A stretch of 64,000 nt of DNA from an uncultured Alphaproteobacteria bacterium (GTDB lineage: Bacteria > Pseudomonadota > Alphaproteobacteria > RF32 > CAG-239), in contig CALXTI010000002.1 of assembly GCA_944391395.1 (NCBI GenBank), forward strand, positions 1 through 64,000. Direction: 5' to 3'. This document shows positions 38,967 to 47,694 of this stretch, piece after piece (the first letter of the stretch is position 1; the number at the start of each line of letters is the position of its first letter). Both the position numbers and the translations under genes were made by a program. The notes under the pieces are model-generated. The model searched no databases and was not told the DNA's origin. It worked only from the letters and a program-made list of their open reading frames with translations.

Positions 38967-39151
38967 ATTCGGACGAGATTTTTTGCTCTGTTTTTGTTTG
39001 TTTTCCATTTATAAAAACGGTTGTTAAATTGATGTAAGATTGAAGTCCGTTGGTTGATTTAGTTTTTTTCTTTTGGTGATGCCGGTCAACCCTAATATTA
39101 AACTTGATTTGTTGAAATAAATTCCATACGATGTAAACCAAGGAGTTGGAT

Positions 39152-39610
39152 ATGAAAAAAATATTTTTTATTTTATCTTGTTGCATCATTGTTTCTCAAG
39201 CTCATGCCTATGTTAATTGTTATGAAGATGGTTATGGAAATAGGAATTGTTACGGAACGAATTCTGACGGAGACTTCGTAAATATTCGTTCTTCCAGAGA
39301 TTCTTTTGGAAACACCAATACGTTCGGCACCATAGGCGATGACTTTATGGACACACGTTCTTCCAGAGATTCTTTTGGAAACACCAATACATTTGGCACA
39401 ATAGGCGATGACTTTATAGATGTGCGTTCTTCCAGAGATTCTTTTGGAAATACCGATACGTTTGGCACCATAGGCGATGATTTTATAAACACACGTTCTT
39501 CCAGAGATTCTTTTGGAAATACCAATACGTTTGGCACCATAGGCGACGATTTTATAAACACGCGTTCTTCCAGAGATTCTTTTGGAAACACGACCATATA
39601 TGACTTTTAA
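39152..39610 (+). CDS. Secreted protein made of a signal peptide plus five tandem 20-aa repeats (RSSRDSFGNTNTFGTIGDDF)
   Basis: Signal peptide MKKIFFILSCCIIVSQAHA. AGGAG ribosome-binding site. Repeats are visible in the translation. Confidence 0.65.
   Translation: MKKIFFILSCCIIVSQAHAYVNCYEDGYGNRNCYGTNSDGDFVNIRSSRDSFGNTNTFGTIGDDFMDTRSSRDSFGNTNTFGTIGDDFIDVRSSRDSFGNTDTFGTIGDDFINTRSSRDSFGNTNTFGTIGDDFINTRSSRDSFGNTTIYDF
39287..39600 (+). repeat. Five near-identical 60-bp tandem repeats that encode the protein repeats
   Basis: cgttcttccagagattcttttggaaacaccaatacgtt[c/t]ggcaccataggcgatgactttat... reiterated. The antisense ORF 39250-39597 is an artefact of this repeat. Confidence 0.85.
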
Positions 39611-44671: not shown

Positions 44672-44706
44672 GTACAAAATTTAAATCGTTACAAGCAGAA
44701 GTTATA

Positions 44707-45765
44707 TCATTTTTTTAGAATATAAGAAACTCCCCGAGTTGTTCCAAGTTTTGTTAAAAATCCTTTTTTAACCAGATTTTGAACTGATTTTCGGATTGTT
44801 TCTGCATTTTTGCCTGTTTTTTGAACAATTTCAGGCATGCTTAATTCAGTTTTTTCGGTAAATAAGCCTAAAATTTCATGCGCTGTGGAAGATAATTTTT
44901 CTATATTTGTTTTTTGCAAATTTTGAATTTTATCTTCCAAAGCTCTTTTTTGTTTTTGCAAAGACGTTACAAAAAATGACAGCCATGGCTCATAATCTAT
45001 TTTATCACGCCATATTGTTTTTTGTGTGCCGCGAAGCGCTCTATAATATGCCTCCTTACTCGTCTCGATAATGGATTCCATAGATGCATAAGGCATGTAG
45101 CTGTAGTTGTTTTTAAGCATCAAAAGAACCGTTAAAGCACGAGACAGGCGCCCATTTCCATCTGTAAACGGATGAATGGATAAAAAATGTACGATAAACA
45201 CACCAATCGTGATGATAGGATGCAAAAAGCGATCCTTAAATGTGTCATTTGTCCATTGTATTAATTCCCGCATGAGCCTTGGTGTGTCAAACGGAGTAGC
45301 CGTCTCAAAAATAGTGCCAATTTCTTTACCTGATGCATTATATGCCGCAACTCTGTTGGAATCTGTTTTATATTCCCCGCGATGACGTTCATCTTTTGAT
45401 GAATATTTTAAAAGTATTTGATGTAACTGTTTGATATAGTTTTCCGTTAAGGGAATATCTTCATAGTTTTCAAATATTGTATTAATCAAATCCGAATAGC
45501 CGGCAACTTCTTCTTCATCTCTGGAGCTAAAAGATTTTTTGTTAATACGGCTAAACAACTCCTCAATTTCGGCATCACTCATCTTGTTGCCTTCTATTCT
45601 GTTGGAAGATCCAACAGATTCTATTGTGGCAATTCGTTTCATAATCCTTAGCTCTGCCGGGGTTAGTTTTAACACATCCGAACGCCAAGAACCAATAAAT
45701 TGATCTATCTCGGCAATTTTGTTTAACATATCCGGAGTTATTGTAATATCTTTTATTTTGGGCAT
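44707..45765 (-). CDS. Fic/DOC-family protein (HPFTDGNGR motif) with a C-terminal winged helix-turn-helix
   Basis: Canonical Fic motif HPFxDGNGRxxR. AAAGGAGA ribosome-binding site. Confidence 0.85.
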   Translation of the reverse strand: MPKIKDITITPDMLNKIAEIDQFIGSWRSDVLKLTPAELRIMKRIATIESVGSSNRIEGNKMSDAEIEELFSRINKKSFSSRDEEEVAGYSDLINTIFENYEDIPLTENYIKQLHQILLKYSSKDERHRGEYKTDSNRVAAYNASGKEIGTIFETATPFDTPRLMRELIQWTNDTFKDRFLHPIITIGVFIVHFLSIHPFTDGNGRLSRALTVLLMLKNNYSYMPYASMESIIETSKEAYYRALRGTQKTIWRDKIDYEPWLSFFVTSLQKQKRALEDKIQNLQKTNIEKLSSTAHEILGLFTEKTELSMPEIVQKTGKNAETIRKSVQNLVKKGFLTKLGTTRGVSYILKK

Positions 45766-45781
45766 ACTATCTCCTTTTGTT

Positions 45782-45855
45782 TTACCAGATATTACCAGAT
45801 ATTACCAGATAAGTCAAGATATAGTTACCAGATAGCGTAAAACAATTACCAGATA
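45782..45855. promoter_or_regulatory. Five copies of the direct repeat TTACCAGATA, three of them perfectly tandem at 10-bp periodicity, immediately upstream of the fic start
   Basis: ttaccagata at 45782, 45792, 45802, 45825 and 45846. Confidence 0.7.
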
Positions 45856-46041
45856 TTCCCGGATAAGGGTGTTTCAGCTAGAGAGCCTTGCGTGTAAAGT
45901 TTCTATTTAAAACTTATTTGCAATGATAGCGCTTTTGATTTTTGAGACCAAAGATTTATCGATACTTACGTTTTTTACTTGTGATGGGAGTGTCGTATCA
46001 GCTTTTTGAGTTTTCTTTATGATACAATGTTTGGATTAATC

Positions 46042-46236
46042 GATCGTTTAATGTTAACATCCACATTGTTACCATAACATATTTTTGTCTAATATGCAAC
46101 ATTTTTTACGCATTATCTATACAGCTTTTTTATTAATATTTTCTTAGTATCGTTTTTATTTTCTTTTTTTATTTGGATAAAAAATTGTCAATTTAAACCG
46201 TTAACATTAAACGATCTTTTAATGCTGCATTGCATG
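46042..46236. repeat. Perfect 17-bp inverted repeat (GATCGTTTAATGTTAAC / GTTAACATTAAACGATC) bracketing an AT-rich spacer of about 160 bp, upstream of the ankyrin gene
   Basis: The arms at 46042-46058 and 46220-46236 are exact reverse complements. Confidence 0.6.
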
Positions 46237-46266
46237 TAAAAGTCGACTATTTGGGAGGATAAAACA

Positions 46267-47694
46267 ATGAAATGGGATCCATATGAAAACGGTTATCTTG
46301 GGGAATTCTTTTCCGTAGATCAATATGATTCGAAAGACGAACCTTGCGTGGTCAAAGACGCGAGAGAATTAAAAGCCGGTACATCATATTCGGAACACAT
46401 GCTTGATTTGAACGAATTGATGGAAAAAGGTGTTGTTCACCGCGATGATAAAATAGATTTGTCCGAGATGCCGGAAATTGAAACCATTCAGGCGGCCAGC
46501 CAAGAGCAATTAGATATGTTAACGCCGGAATCTAAAAAGCAAATTAAGGCTATTCATTTAAGCAATAACACGCCGTTTGGTTGGAATGAGGAACTTGATT
46601 ATAACAACATTTACGGAATGGATACCAATTTGGATTTGTCTTCTTATGAAAATGTGAGCGAAGTTCAGACACATTTTTATGTAAACAATGATTTGGAAGA
46701 TATTGTTTTGCCCCCAAAAGTTACCGAGATTTTGTGTCAGCATTCCAAGATGGAAAATTTGCGAAAACACGGTAATCTTGAAGATATTAAGGTTGAGGCA
46801 TCTTCTACGGAAACAGCATTTGTTAGTTATTATGGCCGGGAAAAGAAAGGATGGGAATTTGCACAGGATTATTTAAGGACCGGCGATATTGAAAAACTTC
46901 ATGCGTTTAAGGAACATGGCGGGGATATGCAGCTGCTTTTATCGGAAGCAATCAAGAAAGGCAGTATAGATACTGTTCAGGAAGTCGTGGAAAACGGAGC
47001 GGATGTCAATAAAAACACCGTAGATTATTGCGGTGATACATTAAATTATCCGTTAGAAGAAGCCGTGTCGGAGGATACAAGAGATTATCAGCGCAGAGAT
47101 ATTGTGGAATATTTGATTGCTCAGGGCGCTAAGCTTGAAGGGCGGGAAGGCTCTTATTCTCCGTTAAGCATACAACTGCGACAAGAAGTTAAAGATTATA
47201 AATGTATTGATTTGTTGCTTAAATCCGGTGCGCCCGTAACCTCTGAGGATGTCAAATCCGCTCTTAGTGATGCTAAAGCATTTGAGGTGTTGATGAAAAA
47301 CGGATATCAACCAACCGACAGAGATATGAGCACATTTGTAAGGAGAAATTATGACGGTGCTCACGAGCAAGACCTTGAGGATAAGATAAAAATTGTGAAT
47401 TTAATGGTTCAAGCTCGTCCCGATGCTTTAAAAGAAGGTGGTGCGTTGAAAGACTTTGAATCTAAGTATCCAGAATTGCAACAATATCGCGCCAATATGA
47501 CAAAGGCTGCAGAAAATAGCGCGACACGCGATAATCGGGAATATTTGAAAGCCGTCATGGAAAAAGAAAAACAAAGACGTTATGTCCAACAAGAGCAAAT
47601 CGGTGAAAAAGCGGAAAATAAATCCGTTGCACCGGCTCAGAAAAATGCCGGTCTTCATGATTTGAAGAATCACAAAGACGATTTGGCAAAGTAG
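46267..47694 (+). CDS. Ankyrin-repeat-containing protein, effector-like
   Basis: Repeated ...G(A)DVN...LL..GA... ankyrin-like units in the central region. GGGAGGA ribosome-binding site. Confidence 0.65.
   Translation: MKWDPYENGYLGEFFSVDQYDSKDEPCVVKDARELKAGTSYSEHMLDLNELMEKGVVHRDDKIDLSEMPEIETIQAASQEQLDMLTPESKKQIKAIHLSNNTPFGWNEELDYNNIYGMDTNLDLSSYENVSEVQTHFYVNNDLEDIVLPPKVTEILCQHSKMENLRKHGNLEDIKVEASSTETAFVSYYGREKKGWEFAQDYLRTGDIEKLHAFKEHGGDMQLLLSEAIKKGSIDTVQEVVENGADVNKNTVDYCGDTLNYPLEEAVSEDTRDYQRRDIVEYLIAQGAKLEGREGSYSPLSIQLRQEVKDYKCIDLLLKSGAPVTSEDVKSALSDAKAFEVLMKNGYQPTDRDMSTFVRRNYDGAHEQDLEDKIKIVNLMVQARPDALKEGGALKDFESKYPELQQYRANMTKAAENSATRDNREYLKAVMEKEKQRRYVQQEQIGEKAENKSVAPAQKNAGLHDLKNHKDDLAK

Follow-up and report, generated by a model that had tools for sequence, protein, structure and literature searches.

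The repeat array and its embedded promoter

The 64,000-nucleotide (nt) stretch studied here, called the window below, comprises positions 1 to 64,000 of contig CALXTI010000002.1 from an uncultured Alphaproteobacteria bacterium (assembly GCA_944391395.1), and carries on its minus strand a fic gene that is preceded by an array of 10-base-pair (bp) direct repeats. The unit reads TTACCAGATA on the plus strand and TATCTGGTAA on the fic sense strand. An earlier inspection of the letters alone (the sequence-only reading) had described five copies at one-helical-turn spacing in front of the gene. Our analysis confirmed five exact copies, at plus-strand positions 45782-45791, 45792-45801, 45802-45811, 45825-45834 and 45846-45855, and no sixth exact copy was found in the 64-kb window. 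The distances from start to start are 10, 10, 23 and 21 bp, so that the one-turn spacing holds for the three strictly tandem copies and not for the remaining two, which lie about two turns apart and roughly in helical phase. When one mismatch or none was allowed, nine matches were found in the window against 2.3 +/- 1.5 in shuffled sequences, and none of the 100 shuffles reached nine. Two degenerate copies in register with the others had been missed by the earlier reader: one at 45812-45821 (AGTCAAGATA), which contains the -35 hexamer, and one at 45856-45865 (TTCCCGGATA on the plus strand, TATCCGGGAA on the fic strand). On the fic strand the array spans -26 to -100 from the ATG and comprises five to seven direct units of the general form TATCTGG(T/G)AA, arranged head to tail, with none inverted. 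The gap of 16 nt between the nearest copy and the ATG (45766-45781) contains a ribosome-binding site (RBS), AAGGAG.

A promoter scan placed a sigma-70-type promoter, predicted rather than mapped, within the array (Table 1). The spacer between its -35 and -10 elements is 17 nt, almost two repeat units, and the third tandem unit overlies the expected start site, placed near 45782 +/- 2. Since the proximal units overlap the spacer, the -10 and the +1, any protein occupying them would cover all three. Downstream of the window fic gene no clear terminator was found.

Table 1. Features of the fic locus and their positions in the window.
Feature	Position	Strand	Basis and remarks
Conserved fic cassette (array, promoter and gene), ~1.18 kb	44697..45874	-	blastn of the window region against 14 genome loci
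fic gene, 352 aa	44707..45765	-	Open reading frame; Pfam, PADLOC, PHROGs, AlphaFold2 (AF2)/Foldseek
Codons for the wHTH (winged helix-turn-helix) at the C-terminus, residues about 291-350	44716..44895	-	AF2 secondary structure, predicted local distance difference test (pLDDT) 83-90
Fic active-site codons, H198-PFTDGNG-R206	45148..45174	-	Translation
Inhibitory-helix motif, S54-N-R-I-E58-G59, fits (S/T)xxxE(G/N)	45589..45606	-	Translation; invariant in 52 homologues
RBS AAGGAG, 5 nt ahead of the ATG	45771..45776	-	Read from the sequence
Proximal operator (putative), three perfect tandem TATCTGGTAA	45782..45811	-	Covers promoter spacer, -10 and predicted transcription start
TG-extended -10, TGgTAATAT	45789..45797	-	Promoter scan; formed where tandem copies 2 and 3 (numbered from the -35) meet
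-35 hexamer, TTGACT	45812..45817	-	Promoter scan; sits in degenerate unit 45812-45821
Distal single TATCTGGTAA copy, -69 from the ATG, immediately upstream of the -35	45825..45834	-	
Distal tandem pair at -90/-100, exact 45846-45855 and degenerate TATCCGGGAA 45856-45865	45846..45865	-	

A class II Fic protein with a C-terminal winged helix

The fic product matched the Pfam Fic family PF02661 (E 6.8e-18), phrog_5978 (E 1.8e-58) and, over its full length, the PADLOC SoFic profile PDLC03963 (E 1.3e-50; residues 6-349 on profile positions 17-350 of 361). An (S/T)xxxE(G/N) motif N-terminal to the Fic core defines class II Fic proteins (PMC9755527), and the window protein carries it. The active-site motif HxFx(D/E)GNGRxxR is found at residues 198-209 (HPFTDGNGRLSR), with H198, P199, F200, D202, G203, N204, G205 and R206 invariant across 52 homologues. 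In the AF2 model (mean pLDDT 79.7) the wHTH consists of helices 293-301, 310-317 and 321-333, the last being the recognition helix (AETIRKSVQNLVK), followed by a two-strand wing at 337-350 (KLGTTRGVSY). The C-terminus was matched by CasR/Csa3 wHTH models (E about 1e-6), and a search of the window open reading frames (ORFs) with a hidden Markov model of the wHTH returned fic as the sole match. Foldseek with the AF2 model gave full-length matches to SoFic (3zcn), CbFic2 (8cil) and CccR (7xux), and the whole chain also aligns with Dde_2494 (4rgl); by sequence, the nearest solved structure is 8uqu from Bordetella bronchiseptica (E 1e-38). We place the protein with the SoFic/CccR-type class II Fic proteins that end in a winged helix, and regard it as a putative, potentially toxic AMPylase of the SoFic anti-phage type.

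Conservation of the array with fic

A genome scan by protein, with one genome per species, yielded 14 loci (numbered L001 and so on) in gut metagenome-assembled genomes (MAGs) labelled Alphaproteobacteria, plus one labelled Mailhella. The fic gene is full-length in 13 of the 14, at 70-91% identity, and the match in L014 is a fragment over residues 92-218 only. All 13 full-length loci carry arrays of the window unit, always on the fic strand and in the same layout: one to four distal units, TTGAC(T/A), two or three tandem units, RBS and ATG. Three further lineages, obtained by exact protein look-up (68-73% identity), have direct-repeat arrays too, which brings the total to 16 of 16 protein-selected full-length relatives with same-strand direct repeats (68-91% identity). 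The proximal triple at -46/-36/-26 from the ATG was also seen in L001, L003-L005, L011, L034, L051 and L134, a distal copy at -69 to -71 in most relatives, and a counterpart of the distal pair, at -91/-101, in L001, L004, L005, L034, L051 and L134. When the window was compared with seven relatives, the repeat positions were 87% conserved and the spacers 55%, and the -35 hexamer was identical in all seven (100%). The sequence-only reading had called such an array before a Fic gene unusual, which is wrong for this clade, where the array is the rule; it had also named absence of the repeats from orthologous loci as an outcome that would speak against a function, and at every orthologous locus examined the array was kept with fic.

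One lineage (P0057; L157-L160, 73% identity) shows a concerted change. All four of its units read TAT(T/C)AGGTAA, with T replaced by A at position 5. In P0057 the array occupies the region about 30-100 nt ahead of fic, which starts at 2501 in L157; DUF3768 and serine recombinase genes are its neighbours, and the wHTH of this lineage has an R-to-K substitution in helix 3 and a unique G-to-A substitution at the wing tip.

A mobile cassette and its genomic context

DNA similarity between the window and every relative is limited to fic, about 110 bp upstream and 10 bp downstream. The flanking ORFs are unrelated between loci, and fic is the only gene always found with the array. Judged from these alignments, gene, promoter and array move as one cassette of about 1.2 kb. 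The cassettes of L001, L003 and L004 have a lambda-type portal gene (PF05136) on one side and, on the other, the genes for an S49 prohead protease, decoration protein (D) and major capsid protein (E), which is a classical moron position; elsewhere the cassette was met in islands, beside integrase, HNH and AbiU2-like genes or a serine recombinase. An independent unit between conserved phage genes, as expected of a moron, was seen at these three loci and not at the window copy. Around the latter, no phage genes were detected by tblastn with the L001 portal, protease, D and E proteins, and PHROGs matched only fic and acetyltransferases. A prophage setting for the window copy was rejected, as no portal, protease or capsid similarity was present.

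The G+C fraction of the window between 36 and 48 kb is 0.34-0.37, against 0.42-0.46 in its surroundings. Besides Fic and an ankyrin-repeat protein, this stretch encodes GNAT acetyltransferases, a P-loop protein resembling kinases and a protein of 1035 aa that matched no family, and it is probably an accessory island; no integrase was found among the ORFs scanned in it. It also contains a 69-nt tandem repeat at 39287-39591 (4.4 copies, 90% matches), inside an ORF at 39146-39610 whose 154-aa product has no Pfam family. An inverted repeat of 24 nt (46035-46058 / 46200-46223), unique in the window, encloses 141 AT-rich nt upstream of the gene for the ankyrin-repeat protein (46267-47694). This inverted repeat had been called perfect; it is real, with 92% complementarity. 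A structured RNA at 46020-46266 was considered and dropped: in 44-48 kb, Rfam yielded nothing beyond a chance match to a small nucleolar RNA below the threshold, and the folding signal (z = -2.4) is due to the inverted repeat alone.

Recurrence of the unit before distant Fic genes

We also scanned metagenome and viral contigs from the DNA side, for two adjacent units (ATCTGGKAAWATCTGGKAA), and retrieved at least 138 loci. By a rough estimate, tens of chance matches are expected in such a scan, and many of the loci are simple satellites or chance (e.g. L107, L125, L018, L053). A Fic relative is encoded at 19 or more of the motif-scan loci listed, and the array stands directly upstream of it, on the same strand, in at least 15. 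Eleven of the 15 were identified by tblastn; L087 and L117 are truncated ORFs with the N-terminus of the subfamily described below; in L076 and L104 the array was read upstream of fic, while the scan match itself lies elsewhere in the locus.

L017/L040/L117, L023, L044/L087 and L057 encode Fic proteins that share only 25-29% identity with the window protein and yet have its type of tandem array, and L123 has a related wHTH too. Because this subfamily was found through the motif, the association of array and fic there is not an unbiased estimate. Its wHTH retains the wing GTTRG and the (E/R)T(I/L)R start of the recognition helix. Its tandem array ends in ...GGTAATG, in which ATG is the start codon; there is no RBS, and the junction -10 lies 6 nt before the ATG. 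This arrangement suggests that the mRNAs of the subfamily are leaderless and started from the -10 at the unit junction. The -10 spacing fits a leaderless transcript and so gives independent support to the unit junction as a -10.

The same pairing of wHTH and unit exists in another protein architecture. In L072 (minus strand, ORF 617-2026) a 461-aa ATPase-like protein that is not a Fic ends in a wHTH whose helix 3 (SERTLRLDL) is similar, and five tandem ATCTGG(C/T)AA units stand immediately upstream of its ORF. Repeats of other sequence were found at the promoters of other Fic genes. The DUF4172-Fic-wHTH paralogue that adjoins the cassette in L011 (fic2; 1700-1790) has an AGATTA/TAATCT palindrome on its -10; the L014 Fic, likewise a paralogue beside the cassette (347 aa, Fic domain C-terminal; 700-795), has TCGTAACA/TGTTACG repeats on its promoter; and the Fic-wHTH promoters of L154 and L155 have TTCGCCTA/TAGGCGAA and TTCTGCA/TGCAGAA, respectively. 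Such promoter repeats suggest that autoregulation is general among HTH-bearing Fic proteins. A literature search for the unit sequence returned chance primer matches only, none in the context of a Fic promoter. Boxes for CtrA, DnaA and integration host factor were also tried as identities for the unit and rejected: it does not match their consensuses (TTAA-N7-TTAA with period 11, TTATCCACA and WATCAA-N4-TTR, respectively), and the motif occurs outside Alphaproteobacteria.

Further observations from these scans concern the surroundings of the unit. Between the stop codon of the portal gene and the gene for the S49 prohead protease, gut lambda-like (pro)phages have a variable slot, which is occupied by the fic cassette, by an AAA_14 ATPase (~440 aa) or by a convergent, unrelated 385-aa Fic. 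A pair TATCTGG(G/T)AATATCTGGTAA was found 2-12 nt after the portal stop in all such slots (L001 2870-3000, L038 1227-1246, L045 636-655, L092, L148, L150 and others). Pairs of TATCTGGTAA units adjoin transfer RNA (tRNA) genes in the viral contigs L127/L146 (63-81), L140 (4073-4156) and L151 (1701-1719), with no Fic in the fetched stretch. Finally, L104 has at 8391-10093 the array, an AAA ATPase and then an 80-aa Fic C-terminal wHTH fragment, an order which suggests that, within what was once a fic cassette, the ATPase gene took the place of most of fic.

An autoregulatory operator as the preferred interpretation

The array is very probably a protein-binding regulatory element of the fic promoter. 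It is probably, more specifically, an autoregulatory operator for the C-terminal winged helix of Fic itself, one of two functions put forward by the sequence-only reading and the best supported of those we considered, by the conservation of the array, its overlap with the predicted promoter, its travel with fic and two published relatives. The analysis documents the array, its promoter consensus, its conservation and joint transfer with fic, the fold and domains of the protein and the recurrence of the unit before distant Fic-wHTH genes; we infer that Fic is the binder, that the sign of the regulation is repression and that the distal sites contribute to it. The Fic wHTH would bind each TATCTGG(T/G)AA unit head to tail. 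The proximal triple fills the 17-nt spacer, makes the extended -10 and covers the start, and its occupancy would exclude RNA polymerase; from this promoter occlusion we propose negative autoregulation. The site at -69 and the pair at -90/-100 are separated by 21-23 bp (about two turns); they would probably contribute cooperativity, which may come from Fic dimers held together by the N-terminal helix, as they are in SoFic and CccR. A potentially toxic enzyme would thereby be kept at a low, buffered and self-limiting level in any host that the cassette enters. The earlier term half-sites is doubtful, because all copies are direct and none inverted.

Several points weigh against an operator read by Fic. 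All-direct repeats require head-to-tail binding or flexibly tethered wHTH domains, modes that are not known for any Fic, and CccR, the only footprinted relative, reads an inverted repeat as a symmetric dimer. The Pfam HTH_24 and MarR_2 matches of the window protein are weak, below the curated cut-off. The wHTH of the distant subfamily with the same motif is only 30-40% identical to that of the window protein, and the concerted operator change was seen in the P0057 lineage only. The search for co-variation between residues and bases gave no clean signal, and domain-wise identities do not separate same-motif from other-motif proteins; the only hints are the wing motif (T/S)T(R/K)G and the AGG (P0057) lineage, so that co-variation is suggestive and not decisive for the specificity of the wHTH. 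The promoter architecture is not universal, since L002 lacks the -35 and L128/L025 lack TTGAC. The unit pairs that directly follow phage portal stop codons, with an AAA_14 ATPase or a convergent unrelated Fic downstream, indicate that the array can exist without a cognate fic directly downstream, and these pairs could be relics, regulon sites or something else.

Alternative explanations

One alternative keeps Fic as the binder and gives the array a role beyond that of a repressor site, as a scaffold for head-to-tail assembly of Fic in which the toxin stays inactive (deAMPylating or sequestered) until infection, the pair of wHTH and unit being also a portable regulatory or recombination module. 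By analogy, this would extend the DNA-dependent switch of CbFic2 to a dedicated cis element. As a portable module, the pair may mark the moron exchange slot after portal genes, and may have been reused by the ATPase-wHTH protein of L072. We regard this combined idea as unlikely.

The units may instead be bound by another regulator, be it a global factor of the host or one encoded by a phage. OmpR/PhoB-type response regulators bind direct repeats of 10-11 bp, and this explanation would account for the unit pairs after phage portal genes with cargo other than fic, and for the arrays before a few unrelated genes and beside tRNA genes in viral contigs (L030, L130, L127/L146, L151). However, the array stays with fic where the flanks are unrelated and in MAGs labelled as different phyla, and it precedes Fic genes with 25-29% identity in unrelated metagenomes, while no gene other than fic is common to the loci. 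No other window ORF has this type of wHTH, and in one fic lineage all copies changed together. The Fic fragment behind the ATPase in L104 indicates, moreover, that at least some arrays without fic cargo are relics of fic cassettes. A regulator other than Fic is therefore unlikely.

It is likewise unlikely that the array is, or is in addition, a recombination or cassette-boundary sequence for the exchange of morons in phage head-gene modules, a role that would not exclude the operator. The unit pair stands 2-12 nt after the portal stop codon regardless of the cargo, the similarity between cassettes stops just beyond the array, and in L076 (reverse complement) a 1+2 array stands on either side of fic (383-434 and 1531-1572). 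On the other hand, no recombinase travels with the cassette and the window copy is not in a phage; the strict phasing with promoter and start codon favours a transcriptional role, and the similarity in the flanks could reflect homologous recombination between operators that were already present.

That the tandem units are merely reiterated promoter elements, or a slippage-prone tract that switches fic by phase variation through copy number, is very improbable. Every unit junction does yield TGgTAATAT, and the proximal copy number varies from 2 to 5 between lineages. Nevertheless, the -35 abuts the first unit, so that gain or loss of downstream units leaves the 17-nt spacer to the second junction unaffected, and three copies are present in nearly all close relatives. 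The isolated distal copies at -69 and -123 are conserved yet form no -10, and in P0057 every copy changed from TGG to AGG, whereby the TG of the extended -10 was lost and the unit was kept.

The other function put forward by the sequence-only reading, that of iterons of a degenerate plasmid or island origin together with the AT-rich, inverted-repeat-bracketed block at 46035-46223 (46042-46236 in that reading), is hardly credible and was rejected: the direct repeats are in helical phase near an AT-rich stretch and the 36-48 kb region is lower in G+C, but no Rep or other replication gene is present among the ORFs scanned in 33.5-49.8 kb, the AT-rich block lies beyond the cassette edge (about 45874) and none of the related loci has it, the array keeps a constant orientation and distance relative to the fic ATG and contains a predicted promoter, the cumulative GC skew rises monotonically through the window without a turn, and the units are of 10 bp, where iterons typically measure 17-22 bp.

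Comparison with known systems

The winged helices of OmpR/PhoB and the tandem operators of the DeoR-family protein GlpR provide precedents for head-to-tail direct repeats with a period of 10-11 bp. As in the window, winged helices there read direct repeats on one face of the DNA and several contiguous sites overlap the promoter; these proteins differ in being dedicated transcription factors without an enzymatic toxin domain. Plasmid iterons, too, are phased direct repeats, and the winged-helix protein that binds them is encoded alongside and is often autoregulatory, whereas the window has 10-bp units in a fixed position relative to promoter and start codon, and neither a Rep protein nor origin features.

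Among the Fic proteins, CbFic2 of Coxiella burnetii shares the Fic-wHTH make-up and a full-length fold match (8cil). Binding of DNA by its wHTH drives dimerisation and switches the enzyme from AMPylase to deAMPylase, and no specific operator or autoregulation was reported for it (PMC10628234). SoFic of Shewanella oneidensis (mloA) has the same domain order as the window protein, with N-terminal helix, Fic domain and wHTH, in addition to the full-length PADLOC match. Its target is the first 100 bp upstream of the SoFic gene, to which only the dimer binds (bioRxiv 10.64898/2026.07.09.737422), and its family acts in anti-phage defence (bioRxiv 10.1101/2022.05.11.491447; PMC12249575). The differences are that neither a binding motif nor an operator layout is known for SoFic, that the N-terminus of the window protein lacks the Pfam DUF4172 match which the L011 paralogue has, and that no AS1-like small gene follows the window fic, as the gap between fic and the next ORF measures only 35 bp.

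A published functional parallel is CccR (YPK_0951) of Yersinia pseudotuberculosis. It represses its own promoter through its C-terminal HTH, as established by footprinting, electrophoretic mobility shift assay and isothermal titration calorimetry, and the mutant is 3.3-fold derepressed (PMC9755527). Its operator is a AGATAATCAT-N26-ATGATAATCT inverted repeat over the -35 and -10, bound by a back-to-back dimer with 2:1 stoichiometry, and binding requires both the C-terminal domain and dimerisation (PMC9755527). Like CccR, the window protein is a class II Fic with a C-terminal HTH whose putative 10-bp boxes lie over the -35 and -10 of its own, here predicted, promoter, and the alignment of its AF2 model with 7xux spans 373 columns. 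In sequence the two proteins have little in common (7xux, E 1.9e-8), and the operators differ in layout: CccR has two inverted 10-bp boxes about 26 bp apart, whereas the window has five to seven direct repeats of unrelated sequence at spacings of 10, 10, 23, 21 and 10, three of them contiguous with a 10-bp period. CccR is furthermore an effector of a type VI secretion system, a context that is missing at the window fic.

Among anti-phage systems that consist of one gene, SoFic-type Fic proteins belong to the commoner ones, and a conserved and recognisable operator would offer a concrete handle on how their toxicity is restrained and released. The array predicts the DNA specificity of this wHTH clade and suggests a binding mode unlike that footprinted for CccR, and a single cassette of gene, promoter and operator would explain how a toxic gene is transferred safely between hosts. 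The principle of an autoregulated Fic-wHTH protein is known from published work; what is new at this locus is a probable all-direct, multi-site, promoter-forming operator that travels with its gene as a cassette or moron of about 1.2 kb.

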